Positions 36,775 to 54,959 of a stretch of DNA of 64,000 nucleotides are shown piece after piece. The stretch covers positions 736,001 through 800,000 of the forward strand of contig CBDCUI010000007.1 in assembly GCA_965222615.1 (NCBI GenBank). The letters are read 5' to 3'. A program made the translations under genes and the position numbers. The notes below the pieces were generated by a model. It saw only the letters and a list, made by a program, of their open reading frames with translations, was not told the origin of the DNA and ran no database searches. Numbering within the stretch: the stretch's first letter is position 1; each line of letters opens with the position of its first letter. This DNA is from Gammaproteobacteria bacterium (GTDB lineage Bacteria; Pseudomonadota; Gammaproteobacteria; UBA4575).

Positions 36775-37959
36775 ATGCTTAATGGATTAATTACTCTTCC
36801 TTGGTGGGGCTACCTTGTAATCACATTAATTCTCACCCACATAACGATCATATCCGTAACCCTATATTTACACCGCTGTCAGGCACACTGTGCCTTAGAC
36901 CTGCATCCAATCGTGGCACATTTTTTTCGTTTTTGGTTATGGTTAACTACGGGCATGGTGACCAAAGAGTGGGTTGCTATTCATCGTAAACATCATGCAA
37001 AAACTGAAACTGCAGATGATCCACATAGTCCATATACCAAAGGAATTAGCAAGGTATTTTGGCAGGGTGCTGAACTATATCGCGAGGAAGCCAAAAATCA
37101 ACAAACTCTAGATAACTATGGTCACGGTACACCGAATGATTGGATTGAGCGTAACTTTTACTCACGTTTTAGTAATAACGGTATCGCATTAATTTTTGTT
37201 ATCAATTTAATTGTATTCGGACCACTTGGCTTAACTATTTGGGCGGTGCAAATGATGTGGATTCCATTATTTGCAGCGGGGGTGGTTAATGGCATCGGTC
37301 ATTACTGGGGTTACCGTAATTTTGAAAGTGAAGATGGTTCAACCAATATTGTAAATCTTGGCATAATTATTGGCGGTGAAGAATTACATAATAATCATCA
37401 TGCCTATCCAAGCTCGGCCAAGTTTTCCAGCAAATGGTGGGAGTTTGATTTAGGTTGGTTGTATATCCAATTACTTGCTTATTTGCATTTGGCAAAAGTA
37501 CGCCGACGTGCACCTCAGCCAACTCGGCTACTTAATAAAGATATGGTAGATCTTGAAACCGCTAAGGCAATTATCTCAAGTAAATTGCACGTAATGGCAG
37601 ATTACGCACAGCGAGTCACGCTACCGACATTTAAAACTGAATTTCCTACTATCAATGATGGCCGCTATCAAAAAATTATGCACCAAATGCGCAAAGCATT
37701 GGTGTGTGAAGATAGCCGTCTTAAACCTTTACATCGAGAGTATTTGCAAGAACTTTTGCAAAATAATGAAACGATGCACACGGTCTATGAGTTTCGCCGT
37801 AAATTGCAAGAACTATGGAGTGAGACTTATGCTAGTCACGAACGCTTAATTCAAGCGATTATTCAATGGTGTAAAGAAGCAGAAGAAACTGGTATTAAAG
37901 TGTTGCAAGATTTTGCGCAGAGTTTACGTGGTTACGCATTACAACCTGCCACGGTCTAA
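36775..37959 (+). CDS. desA: Delta-9 fatty acid (acyl-CoA) desaturase
   Basis: His boxes HRCQAH, HRKHH, HNNHH. Confidence 0.92.
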   Translation: MLNGLITLPWWGYLVITLILTHITIISVTLYLHRCQAHCALDLHPIVAHFFRFWLWLTTGMVTKEWVAIHRKHHAKTETADDPHSPYTKGISKVFWQGAELYREEAKNQQTLDNYGHGTPNDWIERNFYSRFSNNGIALIFVINLIVFGPLGLTIWAVQMMWIPLFAAGVVNGIGHYWGYRNFESEDGSTNIVNLGIIIGGEELHNNHHAYPSSAKFSSKWWEFDLGWLYIQLLAYLHLAKVRRRAPQPTRLLNKDMVDLETAKAIISSKLHVMADYAQRVTLPTFKTEFPTINDGRYQKIMHQMRKALVCEDSRLKPLHREYLQELLQNNETMHTVYEFRRKLQELWSETYASHERLIQAIIQWCKEAEETGIKVLQDFAQSLRGYALQPATV

Positions 37960-37978
37960 ATAATTTTTTTAACTAAGG

Positions 37979-38018
37979 CAAGAAATGAACGTTCAGTTCG
38001 TTCATTAATTTTCATCAG
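37979..38018 (+). repeat. 40-bp inverted repeat, left arm
   Basis: 36/40 identical to the reverse complement of 40064-40103. Confidence 0.85.
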
Positions 38019-38024
38019 ATTTAC

Positions 38025-38229
38025 TTGTTCATTTTCTTTGCTTGTCCAAAGAAAACGAACCAAAAGAAAAGACACCCTACCAACTTGTCCTGCGGATTCG
38101 TTCACGACATCGAGTAACGTTGGCCGGCATGATGACGCCATCCAGGCGCAACATGCCTAAAGCAGCCATCCTTGGCTGTTTTACCTTCCGTTTCTTTCGA
38201 TGTCGCTCACCAAGTTGGATGGGAATTAT
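38025..38229 (+). repeat. Dispersed structured repeat element, copy 1
   Basis: Head TTCATTTTCTTTGCTTGTCCAAAGAAAACGAACCAAAAGAAAAG plus nested stems; homologous to 52598-52816 and the reverse complement of 54639-54889. Confidence 0.88.
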
Positions 38230-38352
38230 CCGAAAGGCATTATTAATAAACCCTCTGTAAAAACTTAGTGATCAAAAACCTGCTTAAACTTGATGACCTT
38301 CGAGAAGATAAAGTGTAAATAGAAAAACTATTTAAAGAAGTTAAACCCTACA

Positions 38353-38416
38353 AACTAACGCTATAATTAACAAAGCACGTTACTTTTGCGCGTCTGGATT
38401 TAGCGTCGTGTTAGGT
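38353..38416 (-). other. Degenerate integron attC site
   Basis: Minus strand ACCTAAC...imperfect palindrome...GTTAGTT, 64 nt, starting 4 nt after a cassette-like gene's stop codon. Confidence 0.65.
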
Positions 38417-38420
38417 GCTG

Positions 38421-38858
38421 TTATTTCCATCCTAGTTTTGTTTTTAGTCTATTAAGTAAATTTACTGGTGTATTACTGAGAATATAGAAAATATCTTCCA
38501 TATCGTATTTTAAAAGTTGGATCTCGTTTGTTATATTCACAAAACCCAAAAAATTATACGAGTATATTTCGTTATTATAAAGATAGAAACGTTCCCGTTC
38601 TTTGTTAAATTTCAAGTAGTATTTGTTTATCAATCTTACATTATGATTCCATCTTCTTACACTTTCAGCACTCTCATAGCCTTTTGTCTCAAGTACTTTT
38701 CCAGGAGCTATTTTTTCAATGAATTTTAGAATTTCATTTATAAATACTTCATCACGAAAGTAACAATATGTTTCCTGATCTACTATGAAATCAGTTCCCT
38801 CAAGCTCATCTAAAATAAGTTCTACCTTTTCTGGTTCTACCTGTACTACAATTTTCAT
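38421..38858 (-). CDS. Hypothetical protein (AT-rich, cassette-like)
   Basis: 145-aa ORF with very low GC, followed by an attC-like site. Confidence 0.7.
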   Translation of the reverse strand: MKIVVQVEPEKVELILDELEGTDFIVDQETYCYFRDEVFINEILKFIEKIAPGKVLETKGYESAESVRRWNHNVRLINKYYLKFNKERERFYLYNNEIYSYNFLGFVNITNEIQLLKYDMEDIFYILSNTPVNLLNRLKTKLGWK

Positions 38859-38885
38859 ATACTAAAAACGTTCATCCATAGTCTG

Positions 38886-39170
38886 TTAACAAACTCCTGA
38901 CCGAAATACGATGGCATACCATGCCGCAAAAGCAGAAATTACCGAGGCCAATCCAGAGAGTAAGGCGATCCACCACAGACGGAATTCTCGAATGCTTCGT
39001 GCCGCCTCCTGAATTCTTCGGATGAGTTCATCTTCTAAGTGTTTGTTTCCATCACCACTATAGGTCGAGAATAAACTACATCCCAATTCTTGCGCGAGCT
39101 TGCGTAATGCAACTTCACGTTCACTTTTATCTTTGGACATTATTCGCTTAATTTTTCGTTGCACGTTCAT
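38886..39170 (-). CDS. Hypothetical protein with C-terminal TM helix (cassette-like)
   Basis: 94-aa ORF; GAG-containing RBS; C-terminal hydrophobic helix. Confidence 0.7.
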   Translation of the reverse strand: MNVQRKIKRIMSKDKSEREVALRKLAQELGCSLFSTYSGDGNKHLEDELIRRIQEAARSIREFRLWWIALLSGLASVISAFAAWYAIVFRSGVC

Positions 39171-39184
39171 TTCTCATATCTCAC

Positions 39185-39263
39185 TGATAACGTTTAATGC
39201 CTAAATTCACTGGCGGAGTTGAAGCGCAGCATAATTTGCGTTCAATGTAGCACCTTGTCAACT
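39185..39263 (-). other. Degenerate integron attC site
   Basis: Minus strand AGTTGACAAGG...GCTGCGCTTC..CCGCCAGTGAA...GTTATCA; the R''-like box overlaps the gene's stop codon. Confidence 0.55.
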
Positions 39264-39773
39264 TACATCCCGTTCCCTAATCCTGGCTTGCGTCTTTTCC
39301 CACTCGTCCCGCATAAATGCTTCATCCACACCATGATTTTCCCAGAGTGGTAAATAGATTTCTTCCAGCTTCGGATCGACTGTTCTGAACAGATCGATCA
39401 ACTCAGCAAGCTCGTCGACCATGCTCCGCCGGCCAGACTGCGATATTGCATCCTCAGAGTGGTAATGAAAAAAGCTGTGGACCAGATAATTCCGCTTATC
39501 AAGAACTTTTTGCAACAATTCATCTAGGTTTTCAGGGATAATTGTAGTTTTTCGTGCTGCCTCAAGAAGTTGACCAAGCGTTTTTTTGTCGAACTCGTAG
39601 AAAATCTTCTCAAATGTGTCTCTAGTGAGAACGTTAACCGAAGGTAGCTGAAGCACTACGCCGAGATTAATCAAGCTTTGCTCAATCAAATTAGCCGAGT
39701 AGGCGGCAAGCCCGTAAAAAGCCCATACCTCTTTAGGGTCGTCATAGTTCGGTGTCGGTACTTCTATTGCCAT
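39258..39773 (-). CDS. Hypothetical protein (first cassette after attI-like site)
   Basis: 171-aa helical ORF with motifs TLGQL and RNYLVH; lies between attI-like and attC-like sites. Confidence 0.8.
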   Translation of the reverse strand: MAIEVPTPNYDDPKEVWAFYGLAAYSANLIEQSLINLGVVLQLPSVNVLTRDTFEKIFYEFDKKTLGQLLEAARKTTIIPENLDELLQKVLDKRNYLVHSFFHYHSEDAISQSGRRSMVDELAELIDLFRTVDPKLEEIYLPLWENHGVDEAFMRDEWEKTQARIRERDVS

Positions 39774-39809
39774 TGTCTAAGTTCCAAAACAGAAACCAGC
39801 TCGACAGCA

Positions 39810-39850
39810 AGCTAACATCTTAGTACATAGTAATTTTGCATTGTTATCAC
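39810..39850 (-). other. Putative integron attI-like site without adjacent intI
   Basis: Minus strand ...TACTATGTACTAAGAT-GTTAGCT (GTT core) 36 nt before the first cassette-like ATG. Confidence 0.45.
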
Positions 39851-39948
39851 AACTTATGAGATAAAATTGCCATGATCGTCTAAATTTCGCTTCATAGTGT
39901 GATATTCGCGCATTAGTACACTTTTATCACAACATCGAACTTTTAGGT

Positions 39949-39993
39949 AAAAAAACCCCTCTTAGGAATCACTCATCTGCCTTACTGAGAGGA
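39949..39993 (-). terminator. Possible intrinsic terminator downstream of rpmB-rpmG
   Basis: Minus strand CCTCTCAG...CTAAGAGG stem followed by T7. Confidence 0.4.
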
Positions 39994-40063
39994 AGACTTG
40001 GTTTACAAGCAAGGGTGTTTGCAGAGCTTCGATAAACGGGATGTAGATTTAGCATCCCATAAC

Positions 40064-40103
40064 CTGATGAAAATTAATAAATGAACTGAACGTTTACTTC
40101 TTG
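40064..40103 (-). repeat. 40-bp inverted repeat, right arm
   Basis: Reverse complement matches 37979-38018 at 36/40; begins 17 nt after the rpmG stop. Confidence 0.85.
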
Positions 40104-40119
40104 TGGTAATTGGGAAGAG

Positions 40120-40287
40120 CTACTTGATTTTGGCTTCTTTGTAGATCACGTGTTTACGCACAACCGGATCGTATTTTTTCATCTCTAATTTTTCGGTCAT
40201 GGTGCGTTTATTTTTACTGGTGGTGTAATAATGTCCAGTACCGGCACTGGAAACTAATTTGATTTTTTCGCGAACTGACTTTGCCAT
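40120..40287 (-). CDS. rpmG: 50S ribosomal protein L33
   Basis: Manual translation [55 protein letters not shown]. Confidence 0.97.
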
Positions 40288-40290
40288 TTG

Positions 40291-40536
40291 TTATGTTCTC
40301 TTAGATTTTGATTCGCGTTTGCGGATATCAGCCAAAACCTCGTCAATGCCTTTTTTGTCGATGATGCGCATGCCTTTGCTAGAAACCCGTAATTTTACCC
40401 ATCTGTTCTCACTTTCCACCCAAAAACGGTGAGTGTGGAGATTAGGCATAAAACGACGCCGTGTTTTATTATGGGCATGTGATACGTTATTGCCAGAAGC
40501 AGGGCGTTTTCCGGTAACTTGGCAGACGCGAGACAT
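40291..40536 (-). CDS. rpmB: 50S ribosomal protein L28
   Basis: [29 protein letters not shown]; true start at ATG 40536. Confidence 0.97.
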
Positions 40537-40666
40537 GGTTATTACCTCATAATCCGTTGAAACAGGGCGCGTGAAGATAGCAGAATCGCAAAATTGGCAC
40601 AAGCGTAGGCTAAGATAAGCGGCTAAATGGTCGGCAGTTTTCAAAATAACAGTAGAAATCACAAAA

Positions 40667-41023
40667 ATGGACACAATTTTTCTGCGTGATCTAGAGGTTG
40701 ATGCCACGATTGGTATCTTTGAGTGGGAAAAGCGTATTAAGCAAAAAGTGCGCATCGACCTGGAAATGGGGGCGGATATTGCTAAGGCCGCTGCCACAGA
40801 CGCCATTGAGGATACGCTGGATTACAAGGCTATTGCTAAGCGCGTGGTGCAATTTGTCGAAGACAGCCGTTATGAGCTAATCGAAACCCTGATCGAAAAA
40901 ATAGCCGAGATTTTGTTGCAAGAATTCGATATCCCCTGGGTACGCGTCACAGTAAGTAAGCCTGGTGCAGTACGTGGTTCTCGAGATGTCGGCATTACTA
41001 TCGAACGAGGGGTTCGCACATAG
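40667..41023 (+). CDS. folB: Dihydroneopterin aldolase
   Basis: IGIFEWE..IKQ, LDY, LIETL, VSKP. Confidence 0.96.
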
Positions 41024-52541: not shown

Positions 52542-52597
52542 TTCTCTATTTTGTTCTTTTATTAGTAATGAATATAAATTGAGCGTTCTAAAATGTA

Positions 52598-52816
52598 TTG
52601 TTCATTTTCTTTGCTTGTCCAAAGCCTTAATTAAATAGACTAGGGGAACCAAAAGAAAAGACCCCCGAATTTACTTGCCCTTCGGGTTCACTCGCTACAC
52701 AGAATGACTTTACTGTCGGCATGATTCGCATCCTGCTCAGCATGCCTCAAATGAACATCCCTGTTCATTTGTCAGCAGTCTTATCTGCTTGCTCGTCAAG
52801 CAAATAATGGGAATTT
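52598..52816 (+). repeat. Dispersed structured repeat element, copy 2 (most diverged)
   Basis: Same head (with an insertion) and the same stem order as copies 1 and 3, with different paired sequences. Confidence 0.8.
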
Positions 52817-52944
52817 AAGCAGCATCAAAAATGATTGCTTTCGTCCAATAGCAATGGTATGGCCTCCCTCAACTTTAAACGGCATCGTAATGTGCCCATA
52901 CTGGAAGCGATAGAACCAGTTACTTTGAATAAAGGAGACCATAC

Positions 52945-53979
52945 ATGAACAAGATTACACGCATGGGTGTGGATTTGGCAAAGCATGTTTTTCAACTACA
53001 CGGGGTGGATCGCACGGGAAAGTGCGTATTCAAACGACGCTTATCTCGAAGCAAGTGGCTTAAGGTATTAGTGGAGCATGTTGAACCGGGTGGTGAGATT
53101 GGCATGGAGGCCTGTTCGGGTGCACACCACTGGGCTCGTGTATTACAACAACGAGGCTATGTGGTGAAATTGATTGCACCCCAGTTTGTAAAGCCTTATG
53201 TAAAGAGCAACAAGAATGATGCCAACGATGCCGAAGCCATTTGCGAAGCCATGAGTCGCCCCAACATGCGCTTTGTCACGATCAAAAGTATTGAACAGCA
53301 AGACATTCAGGCCCTGCATCGTGTGCGTAATACTTTGGTGCAACAACGCACCGCTAAAGCCAATCAGATTCGAGGCTTAGTGAGTGAATATGGCTTAGTC
53401 GCACCCCAACAGTTACATCGATTACGCGCTGCAATACCGACTTGGTTAGAAGACGGAGAGAATGGCTTAACGCCACACTTTCGTTCTTTACTACAGGGAC
53501 TTCAACATGACGTACTAACATTAGATGCGCGTGTAAAAGAACTTGATCAAACGATTGAACAACAGGCCAAACAAAACGAAGTCACCAAGCGTCTACAACA
53601 GCTACGAGGGGTCGGGCCGATGGTGGCCACAGCATTGATTGCCACGGTAGGCGATGCCAAACAATACAAGAGCAGTCGCCAGATGGCGGCAGCCTTAGGC
53701 TTAACCCCCAGACAACACAGTTCAGGCAATAAAGAGCGTTTACTGGAAATCAGTAAACGCGGCGATGCCTATCTGCGCACCTTACTCATTCACGGAGCAA
53801 GGGCTGTCGTCTCGCAAGCGAAACATAAAGAGGATCGATTGAGTCAGTGGGTCACGCATCTTTCTAAAACCAAACATACGAATGTGGCCGCTGTCGCACT
53901 GGCGAATAAAACCGTGCGTATGGCATTTGCAATGTTGCGAGATGAAAGTGAATATGATCCGAACTTTGCGCTTATGTGA
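52945..53979 (+). CDS. IS110 family transposase/recombinase
   Basis: GVDLAK, MEAC, KNDANDA (DEDD), GVG, GLTP..HSSG. Confidence 0.97.
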   Translation: MNKITRMGVDLAKHVFQLHGVDRTGKCVFKRRLSRSKWLKVLVEHVEPGGEIGMEACSGAHHWARVLQQRGYVVKLIAPQFVKPYVKSNKNDANDAEAICEAMSRPNMRFVTIKSIEQQDIQALHRVRNTLVQQRTAKANQIRGLVSEYGLVAPQQLHRLRAAIPTWLEDGENGLTPHFRSLLQGLQHDVLTLDARVKELDQTIEQQAKQNEVTKRLQQLRGVGPMVATALIATVGDAKQYKSSRQMAAALGLTPRQHSSGNKERLLEISKRGDAYLRTLLIHGARAVVSQAKHKEDRLSQWVTHLSKTKHTNVAAVALANKTVRMAFAMLRDESEYDPNFALM

Positions 53980-54019
53980 AATAAAACAATTAACGAAATT
54001 ACATGTACTTACACTTAAG

Positions 54020-54240
54020 AGGATTATCTACCACGATTGCAAAGTAATTTATTAGATGGCAAACCGGTCGAACCGACCTAAGCGTAACCCGTGAATGTCC
54101 AGGTACTTCGAGTACGTAATAGCGATTGGGTGCTTAGGTGCGAATACACCATCCTGGCCCAGCATCAACGCTTGCTATCAATAGAGGCCGAATATACGTG
54201 TGCAGTCGACTCTACTTTGTCATTGAATATTTTGCTTGCA
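54020..54240 (+). ncRNA. Putative bridge RNA/seekRNA of the IS1111 element (boundaries approximate)
   Basis: AATGTCC (54094-54100) and AATAGCG (54118-54124) match both strands of the reconstructed target; ACCAT (54148-54152) and ATATAC (54192-54197) match the joined IS ends. Confidence 0.75.
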
Positions 54241-54275
54241 AACGGAGGGAGGCCATATACGGACATTTTATAAAT

Positions 54276-54581
54276 TCAGCAACATGGAATGCCTGAAATA
54301 ATCATACCGGATAAAATCCAAATAAATAATCCGAGGAATAATAAATAAATTGAAATATCATTTTTAAAAATAGTGGGTAGCATAATCAAAGGCAAACTAA
54401 AAATTGCGAATATCCCTGCAAATAATATATCTGACTTATCTATGCCAAACCTAAAGATTAAGAAAGGACCAAATAAAGCATCATAGTCTGATGGCGGGGA
54501 TCCATAAAGAGAGAAATAGCTTACAAGACCAAATACTAAAAACGCTATTGAAAGTAGAATAAAGTATTTAAATTTTTTCAC
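54276..54581 (-). CDS. Hypothetical AT-rich membrane protein
   Basis: 101 aa with about 3 TM helices; low GC; GTG start. Confidence 0.65.
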   Translation of the reverse strand: MKKFKYFILLSIAFLVFGLVSYFSLYGSPPSDYDALFGPFLIFRFGIDKSDILFAGIFAIFSLPLIMLPTIFKNDISIYLLFLGLFIWILSGMIISGIPCC

Positions 54582-54638
54582 TAATATATTTTTAGAATGG
54601 TTACTTTAGATTGTTAACGGACATACTAGCACCTCTTA

Positions 54639-54889
54639 ATAATTCCCATCCAACTTGGTGAGTAATATCGAAAGCAAGTGAAGGTAAAACATCCATGGAT
54701 GGGTGTTTTAGGCATGTTGCGCCTGGACGGCGTCATCATGCCGGCCAAACTTGCTTGATATTACGAACGTACTCGAAGAGCAAGTTGGTGGGGAAAGGCA
54801 TGTAATTAATGTTTAAGCGCTAGTAATTTAAGTCTAGCAAGGGCACTTTTCTTTTGGTTCGTTTTCTTTGGGCAAGCAAAGAAAATGAA
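54639..54889 (-). repeat. Dispersed structured repeat element, copy 3
   Basis: Reverse complement shares head, core and tail with copy 1, plus an insertion after the head. Confidence 0.88.
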
Positions 54890-54959
54890 TGAAACATTTT
54901 AAATGTTTTTATTTAGTGAATCGTACGTTCACTTCTTGCCTAATGTAAAGAGTAGCAAA

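Follow-up and report, generated by a model that had tools for sequence, protein, structure and literature searches.

What is the element that occurs three times in the 64,000-nt stretch analysed here (Gammaproteobacteria bacterium, lineage UBA4575; assembly GCA_965222615.1, contig CBDCUI010000007.1, positions 736,001 to 800,000 of the forward strand; hereafter the window), and what do its copies do at the borders of accessory DNA? A preliminary description, made from the letters alone, had recognised a structured element with compensating stem changes and had been unable to place it in any named family. That last point was not borne out. Judged by covariance-model matches and predicted folding, the three repeats are copies of the catalogued structured-RNA element TwoAYGGAY (RF01731), in its extended form. 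The best-supported interpretation is that of a TwoAYGGAY-class structured RNA gene that has expanded in the present lineage, and our best guess, from sequence, is a protein-binding (CsrA-type) small RNA which would spread like a mobile element.

The family being already described, the element counts as a new member of it. Since 2010, TwoAYGGAY has remained an orphan RNA motif, for which a single role, CsrA binding, has been proposed. The locus provides a clean example outside Pseudomonas, where three subtypes in one genome give dense covariation, where the evidence on the strand is independent of the Rfam model and where a sister species allows a direct comparison of filled sites with empty ones. 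In addition, accessory genes lie within inverted pairs of the element, one of them (outside the window) coding for an antiviral reverse transcriptase, and the taxonomic range of its 3' module is much wider than that of RF01731.

Family, fold and strand of the element

An Rfam scan of the window yielded one match above threshold, RF01731 at 54636-54801 (+) in copy 3, with 44.0 bits over model positions 1-168 (gathering score, 43 bits). In a permissive scan, RF01731 was also found in the two other copies: at 38067-38232 (-) in copy 1, over the full model with 39.0 bits, which is below the gathering score, and at 52717-52771 (-) in copy 2, as a local match of 31.3 bits covering two hairpins only. 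Against the whole genome, RF01731 gives five matches at E<=1, one of them above the cut-off. The homology of all 15 copies in the genome to copy 3 was shown by the covariance models built in the present analysis, R1 (from 5 copies) and R2 (from 15 copies). No tRNA or tmRNA was found in the window, nor any other Rfam family above threshold, CsrB and Rsm included; weak snoRNA and miRNA matches (E 0.1-0.9) were dismissed as chance. A match to an already described family of miniature inverted-repeat transposable elements (MITEs) or repetitive extragenic palindromes (REPs) had initially been named as evidence against a new element. The RF01731 match comes close to this, and the terminal repeats of a MITE were not found.

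TwoAYGGAY is listed by Weinberg et al. (2010, PMC2864571) as a probable RNA that is not cis-regulatory, from human gut, gamma-Proteobacteria and Clostridiales. According to the preprint of Li et al. (bioRxiv, September 2026, 10.64898/2026.09.22.753630), an extended, multi-copy TwoAYGGAY with a 3' pseudoknot exists in Pseudomonadota, in numbers from none to 202 per genome and with 5' GMTBT repeats (a GMTBT(T) 5-6-mer array upstream of the 5' end). The same preprint reports that 68.4% of doublets are divergent, with a median spacing of 249 bp, and suggests a Csr/Rsm sponge role and mobile-like expansion. A literature search on the family name found no further functional work. Our assignment to the extended form is made by the features described in this preprint. 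The elongated basal stem, the extra hairpins and the 3' pseudoknot are present here as helices 1-3 and 7-9 and the pseudoknot pair, and multiple copies, copy-number variation and divergent doublets were all found.

The element begins with a conserved CCCAU, continues with the TwoAYGGAY core and the 3' module and finishes with a terminal hairpin and CUUCUUGC, about 250-300 nt in all; longer elements have insertions of 16, 47 or about 80 nt. In its 5' part, a short CCC/GGG outer stem is combined with a basal stem that is long and branched and bears a mini-hairpin. Two hairpins follow, each with an invariant GGA in the loop (11/11 aligned copies of types A and B). In the 3' module, a pyrimidine run UUUUCUUUU lies beside a UUUUCUUUG/CAAAGAAAA hairpin whose loop pairs with bases just upstream, making an H-type pseudoknot, and the final hairpin with its CUUCUUGC abuts the stop codon of a convergent gene. 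Copy 1 (type A) is a full element at 37965-38223 (-), scoring 235.9 bits with R1, with its 5' end CCCAU at 38223, its 3' pseudoknot module at 38027-38074 and its terminal hairpin segment at 37965-38035. Copy 2 (type B) occupies 52560-52811 (-), with the 5' end at 52811, a 3' module ending at 52600 and an atypical terminal segment (95 bits with R1). Copy 3 (type A; 54645-54952, +; 209.2 bits with R1) forms a divergent doublet with copy 2, and 47 nt are inserted between its basal stem and its 3' module. These boundaries are slightly wider than the earlier ranges because the 3'-terminal hairpin segment is also part of the repeat. Assembled contigs (four sets from one study) break at the repeats, and their apparent joints at 38035/38077 and 52608/52744 are cross-matches between repeat copies. 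As no contig joins cleanly across the gap, nothing was concluded from the empty stretch 38492-39819 of contig set X2.

Next to this anatomy, the stems listed in the preliminary description (closing stem, mini-hairpin, long stem, two hairpins with TCC loops and a U-rich/A-rich head) are all present. The TCC loops are the GGA loops of the family, because RF01731 matches the opposite strand. The orientation had consequently been given in reverse, with the former tail being the 5' end and the former head being the 3' pseudoknot module.

That the three copies share one fold with compensating stem changes was confirmed using a 15-row model-fitted alignment, from which all pair counts are taken; a 17-row version gave similar figures and was set aside because two of its rows were spurious (a fragment and a reverse-strand hairpin). 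Standard pairs fill 92.6% of 1024 cells, versus 35.8-43.1% in controls with the 3' partners shifted by 1-3 columns, and 51 of the 71 pairs show changes on both sides, versus 7-12 in these controls. None of 500 shuffles equalled any of the five observed measures. Both-side changes occur in 7/10 and 10/12 pairs of the two GGA hairpins, and the basal stem also covaries. Since the alignment is fitted to the structure and the copies are kin, these figures are not probabilities, but the distance from the controls is wide. Compensating changes between types A and B are visible by eye, and the sole copy in G001, a genome of the same genus, has further compensated stems with its loops kept. Selection for the fold, as originally proposed, is supported by these counts.

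The same alignment bears on the strand. On the strand matched by Rfam, paired cells hold 50 G-U/U-G combinations versus 12 A-C/C-A, and the minimum folding energy, an alignment-free measure, is 2-21 kcal/mol below that of the complement in 15/15 copies. Together, the G-U excess and the folding-energy asymmetry favour an RNA read from the Rfam strand, so that the likely RNA strand would be the one opposite to that first described. As both point to selection on one transcribed strand, they also count against a rival explanation, in which the repeat is primarily a mobile element at the DNA level (foldback, MITE-like or REP-like), its hairpins serving as single-stranded DNA for a transposase or recombinase and its outward-facing pairs being the long inverted ends of a composite cargo unit.

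Copy number, inverted pairs and neighbouring genes

A search of the rest of the genome with covariance models had been put forward as a check on the element. Using BLAST and model R1, 15 full copies plus fragments were found in the 3.10-Mb genome, with E values from 5.8e-71 to 1.9e-12. Type A comprises five copies (including copies 1 and 3), type B six (including copy 2) and type C three with a variant 3' module, next to one further variant. Among 41 genomes (the present one and 40 relatives), matches occur in 7, this genome counted. G001, the one other genome of the genus (complete, 2.7 Mb, single contig), has 1 copy versus 15 here. At 37950-40120, where copy 1 and three open reading frames (ORFs) are found here, the matching gap in G001 is 17 bp. 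The site at 52543-54957, which holds copy 2, an IS110-type element (52838-54268), a 101-aa ORF and copy 3, corresponds to 145 bp, and the solo type B copy between nlpB and dxs and the solo type A copy between radA and a corC-like gene face gaps of 85 and 43 bp, respectively. This agrees with the multi-copy, mobile-like presence and absence suggested at the outset, with whole units missing from the G001 sites.

Three inverted pairs, each with 3' ends outward, enclose cargo: two are full divergent doublets and one combines a full element with a solo end. The latter, pair 1 (37965-40114), has 43-nt arms at 37979-38021 and 40061-40103 that are 88% complementary. The second arm is a solo 3'-terminal hairpin segment at 40061-40103 (+), inverted relative to copy 1 and lying at the far border of a 2.1-kb islet (nhmmer, C7:776060-776114, E 2.8e-08), and because of it the islet of copy 1 is bounded by inverted ends. 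Its cargo ORFs, at 38421-38858 (145 aa, orphan), 38886-39170 (94 aa, orphan) and 39258-39773 (171 aa, DUF4145), are all on the - strand, the strand of copy 1, and upstream of it; they have no PADLOC or NCBIfam match.

Pair 2 is the doublet of copies 2 and 3 (52560-54952, 3' ends outward). The earlier observation that these two copies face each other around one islet holds in the form of an inverted doublet enclosing accessory DNA. Between them lies an IS110/IS1111-type insertion sequence (IS) at 52838-54268 (+), with its transposase at 52945-53979 (PF01548 and PF02371), inserted 26 bp from the 5' end of copy 2; its boundaries were set by comparison with further copies in this genome and with a 78%-identical relative that lies at another place in G001. 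A 101-aa hydrophobic orphan ORF without family match (54276-54581, -) is located between the IS and copy 3, divergent from copy 3. Pair 3 is outside the window, at C7:115097-117532, and is a divergent doublet of type A and type B. Its sole cargo is a 504-aa AbiP2-type antiviral reverse transcriptase (C7:115555-117069; L180:4555-6069, +; PADLOC E 5.6e-194). Both full doublets are therefore heterotypic, joining type A with type B. All copies in the window had been described as lying between a core gene and AT-rich DNA. The border between core and accessory DNA stands, and the AT-richness does so only partly: the islet beside copy 1 has 38.3% GC versus 39.2% for the genome, and 54269-54644 beside copy 3 has 28.7%.

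Short-spacer divergent doublets without cargo were found at other gammaproteobacterial loci, with spacers of 55 bp (L075) and 92 bp (L033). Several solo copies here also stand between core genes with no islet, as in the nlpB-dxs gap. The inverted pairs around cargo fit either a composite transposon-like unit or cargo landing between pre-existing outward-facing copies. We lean towards the second, because of the short-spacer doublets without cargo at L033 and L075 and the preprint's median of 249 bp. The gene-capture hotspot of the preliminary description is a conjecture.

Much of this speaks for the DNA-level mobile element introduced above. Three inverted pairs enclose cargo, one of them with the AbiP2 reverse transcriptase, the first two of these units are absent from the matching G001 sites, and the copy number differs strongly between the two genomes. 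The pairing of A with B in the full doublets keeps a long perfect palindrome from arising, insertion sequences are concentrated around the elements (IS110 at 26 bp, another IS at 36-92 bp), and exact 24-mers of the 3' module common to several phyla fit horizontal spread. On the other hand, no terminal inverted repeat of at least 20 nt exists between the two ends of a single element (copy 1), and no target duplication was seen at three junctions, for which the empty-site reference is only 70-80% identical. No transposase or recombinase tied to the element was found. Y1 (HUH) transposase genes do not appear to track it, being present in 4/7 genomes with the element versus 13/34 without; the three element-bearing genomes that lack Y1 are fragmented (190-280 contigs). 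Finally, the short-spacer doublets without cargo leave room for cargo that landed between pre-existing copies. Taken with the strand evidence, this makes a primarily DNA-level element rather unlikely in our judgement, and a structured RNA gene that has multiplied in this lineage remains the preferred reading.

Several further repeats were observed around the element. The IS110/IS1111-type IS has subterminal inverted repeats and about six copies, also at C7:813540, C7:820683, C9:256707, C9:260084 and C9:962178; two copies adjoin TwoAYGGAY elements or remnants. A 1081-bp IS with a 337-aa rve-type transposase has five near-identical copies, including C7:117569-118649 (L180:6569-7649), and three of the five are located past the 3' end of either a TwoAYGGAY element or a solo terminal segment, at a distance of 36-92 bp and in either orientation. 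As a source of the element ends this IS was ruled out, being a separate 1081-bp unit that adjoins elements in either orientation. Both kinds of IS thus cluster at TwoAYGGAY sites. One Y1_Tnp gene (IS200-like, HUH) is present in the genome, at C8:549505-549831 (+), with no positional link to the element. A solo type A copy lies beside tRNA-Val (L190:4396-4472), with an OLD-family ATPase/TOPRIM nuclease (C9:952324-954105; L190:2324-4105, -) directly upstream, between tRNA-like sequences. A second repeat family of ~250 bp, relatively GC-rich, occurs at C8:422736-423000 (L183:14736-15000) and in about seven other places; one of its copies precedes a type A element by ~100 bp. Over 139 bp, this second repeat shares 91% identity with DNA located ~850 bp upstream of the single TwoAYGGAY copy in G001, well in excess of the 70-80% found for core genes.

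The position of the element relative to genes raises another possibility, namely a cis-acting end-of-operon module made up of a very stable structure and a hairpin. Without any function as an RNA in its own right, it would stop or insulate transcription and shield neighbouring messages at their 3' ends. A convergent gene is found on the 3' side of 12/15 copies here and of 7/8 in relatives, and its stop codon is often only 0-22 nt away from the terminal hairpin. On the 5' side, five copies are preceded by co-directional genes or operons. In copy 1, the terminal hairpin also scores as a terminator-like site for desA on the + strand. However, placement beside convergent genes is expected of any tolerated insertion, and the relatives manage with 17-145 bp at the same sites. 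A terminator, moreover, needs no covarying multi-branch fold of ~200 nt, no invariant GGA loops and no pseudoknot, and the discoverers of the motif rated it as not cis-regulatory (PMC2864571). For these reasons we consider an end-of-operon module quite improbable.

The gene adjoining copy 1 is a 394-aa ORF at 36775-37959 (+) with Pfam matches to FA_desaturase and to the ISL3 transposase family. An ISL3 remnant was ruled out here: NCBIfam identifies a DesA-family desaturase with a curated 'DesA/ISL3 alpha bundle tail' domain, and the ORF is not an IS remnant because it is conserved in G001. Beyond the islet, a 171-aa ORF at 40291-40806 (-) matches ribosomal protein L28 only in residues 93-152. 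Its N-terminal part is most likely an ORF-calling artefact running into the islet border.

The 3' module and its distribution

On the RNA strand, the 3' module reads GUGUC-UUUUCUUUU-GG-UUCG-UUUUCUUUG-GACAAG-CAAAGAAAA-UGAAC. A 24-base pattern taken from it (one R allowed) is found exactly in at least 118 stretches of a species-representative genome collection, versus a chance expectation, by our own arithmetic, of ~0.01 matches in 596 Gb on both strands. Taxa were read from the record titles of 80 loci among the matches listed, to which the following refers. In Bacteroidota, they comprise Chitinophagales, Saprospiraceae, Cyclobacteriaceae, Lentimicrobiaceae and many genera of Flavobacteriaceae. 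In Gammaproteobacteria, Rhodanobacteraceae, Lysobacterales, Chromatiales, Marinobacterium, Rodentibacter and an Enterobacteriaceae metagenome-assembled genome (MAG) are represented, and the pattern also occurs in Desulfobacterota and in a Gemmatimonadota MAG.

Among the matches listed, 120 occurrences from other genomes were examined, and the upstream pyrimidine strand is recognisable in 88 of these. In 86 of the 88, the base before the pyrimidine strand pairs with the variable loop base (NGUC/GACA, NGCC/GGCA). The remaining two are shifted by the search pattern, so that none is mismatched; the other 32 of the 120 are unscorable. This supports the 3' pseudoknot predicted from sequence, as reported in the preprint. 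The foot pair of the 3' hairpin covaries as well, being G-C in 12, C-G in 3, U-A in 2, A-U in 2 and G-U in 1 of 20 Bacteroidota sequences. Since the run UUUCUUUU is parallel-compatible with AAAGAAAA of the hairpin, giving U.A-U layers and one C+.G-C, a major-groove triple helix is plausible, and it would explain the near-invariance of the module. We take the 3' module to be a putative stabilising pseudoknot, possibly with a triple helix. The head of the element had earlier been suggested to be a pseudoknot or a triplex; the first suggestion agrees with the pairs in 86/88 and the second is plausible from the letters.

An Rfam scan of 20 loci with the 24-mer returned RF01731 for the Enterobacteriaceae locus alone (55 bits) and otherwise only a tRNA. 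Using model R2, the gammaproteobacterial loci are full-length, with 76-130 bits, and the Bacteroidota loci appear as shorter elements of about 150-165 nt, with 45-66 bits. The predicted fold of an alignment of 20 Bacteroidota sequences has, besides the same 3' module, a closing stem and two hairpins, the first with a GCCUUGGA-type loop. For 23 of its 39 predicted pairs, at least one sequence has both partners changed with the pairing retained. These Bacteroidota elements were further observed to be multi-copy, with an exact 3' module, another 5' domain with one GCCUUGGA-type loop and no Rfam match.

A broader reading can be built on this distribution. The 3' module may be the shared engine of pan-bacterial structured mobile repeats, joined to different 5' domains in Bacteroidota, Desulfobacterota and Gemmatimonadota, with TwoAYGGAY as its proteobacterial branch with CsrA loops and with the outward-facing pairs as landing pads or shuttles for defence genes such as AbiP2. 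We regard this as a doubtful proposition. A word search of the main text of the preprint gave no mention for TwoAYGGAY of a triple helix, of defence cargo or of Bacteroidota relatives of the 3' module.

Putative function and comparison with known systems

As proposed by Gardner and Eldai (2015, PMC4333381), who matched the TwoAYGGAY loops to the CsrA-binding motif, the element could be a CsrA-sequestering small RNA. The present genome has one CsrA gene (C8:997499-997654, 92 bits). With CsrA encoded in the genome and GGA retained in both loops, CsrA binding is our first guess at its function. In the reading that we prefer, the element is a TwoAYGGAY-class structured non-coding RNA of ~250-300 nt, probably read from the Rfam strand. 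Its two GGA loops would bind a protein dimer, most likely CsrA, and the RNAs would titrate CsrA. The pyrimidine run might occupy the major groove of the hairpin, and the resulting triple helix (U.A-U / C+.G-C) would lock and stabilise the 3' end. The element itself would multiply like a non-autonomous mobile element into gaps between convergent genes, and accessory genes would then lie, or land, between two outward-facing copies. Taken as a whole, this reading strikes us as slightly better than evenly balanced.

Several points weigh against it. Only one of the 15 copies clears Rfam's own cut-off, and this copy, copy 3, is the one with the 47-nt insertion and can form only 1 of its 4 pseudoknot pairs. 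Strict AYGGAY is found in only some of the hairpin loops, those of copy 1 being AAGGAU and CUGGAU. The GMTBT 5-mers (six kinds) are not enriched, with a mean of 1.33 per 200 nt upstream of the 15 copies versus 1.02 (sd 1.0) in 5000 random windows. The structure and G-U counts come from model-fitted alignments of related copies. Promoter-like sites are absent beside copy 1, and for copies 2 and 3 six were found versus 6.4 expected, which is not above shuffles. The triple helix is a matter of sequence logic, its three strands hardly vary, and the third-strand change in type C is U to G opposite an A-to-G change, where C would be expected, a partial fit only. Two GGA sites per RNA are few for a sponge. 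Finally, CsrA was found in none of five Bacteroidota genomes carrying the 3' module (completeness not given). Its occurrence in such genomes means that the role of the 3' module has to be a CsrA-independent one.

Compared with RF01731, the common feature is two consecutive GGA-loop hairpins on a shared basal stem, with copies 1 and 3 matching the model end to end. The loops here frequently depart from strict AYGGAY, the 3' end extends ~100 nt past that of the Rfam model, and in the window only copy 3 attains the gathering score. The small RNAs CsrB, CsrC and RsmX/Y/Z titrate Csr/Rsm proteins through GGA motifs in hairpin loops (PMC4333381). The element resembles these sponges in the position of its GGA motifs and in a genome that encodes CsrA. 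It differs from them in that each RNA has only two GGA hairpins, the copies are many and dispersed, and a large additional fold is present; the Rfam scan of the window showed no sequence relation.

For the 3' module, the nearest likeness is to H-type pseudoknots with triplexes and to 3'-end triple helices. Such triplexes are known from telomerase RNA, the SAM-II and preQ1-II riboswitches and the MALAT1/PAN ENE. Shared with these are a pyrimidine strand beside a U-A-rich helix and a loop pairing upstream. The triple helix proposed here would differ in lacking a ligand or poly(A) context, and ~60 nt more come after the module.

As a dispersed repeat, the element can be compared with REP/REPIN and MITE-type repeats, which are dispersed and structured, lie after gene ends, often form inverted pairs and serve as landing sites for IS110-family and other insertion sequences. 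Its dispersed structured copies after gene ends, its inverted pairs and the IS landing beside it resemble this picture. It is much longer than these repeats, is multi-branched with conserved loops and shows no apparent link to a Y1 transposase. From a MITE it differs in that the single unit has no terminal inverted repeats; the comparison of target duplications is a weak one, given a reference only 70-80% identical.

A further close system is the extended TwoAYGGAY of Li et al., with which the present element shares its multi-copy nature and its divergent doublets, in line with the preponderance of divergent doublets in the preprint. The host here lies outside Pseudomonas, in a Thiotrichales-like lineage as judged by its PurH (77% similarity to MAGs of uncultured Thiotrichales), and the 5' repeats of the Pseudomonas form are not enriched. 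Where the preprint gives a median doublet spacing of 249 bp, the doublets described here enclose cargo of 0.4-1.9 kb.

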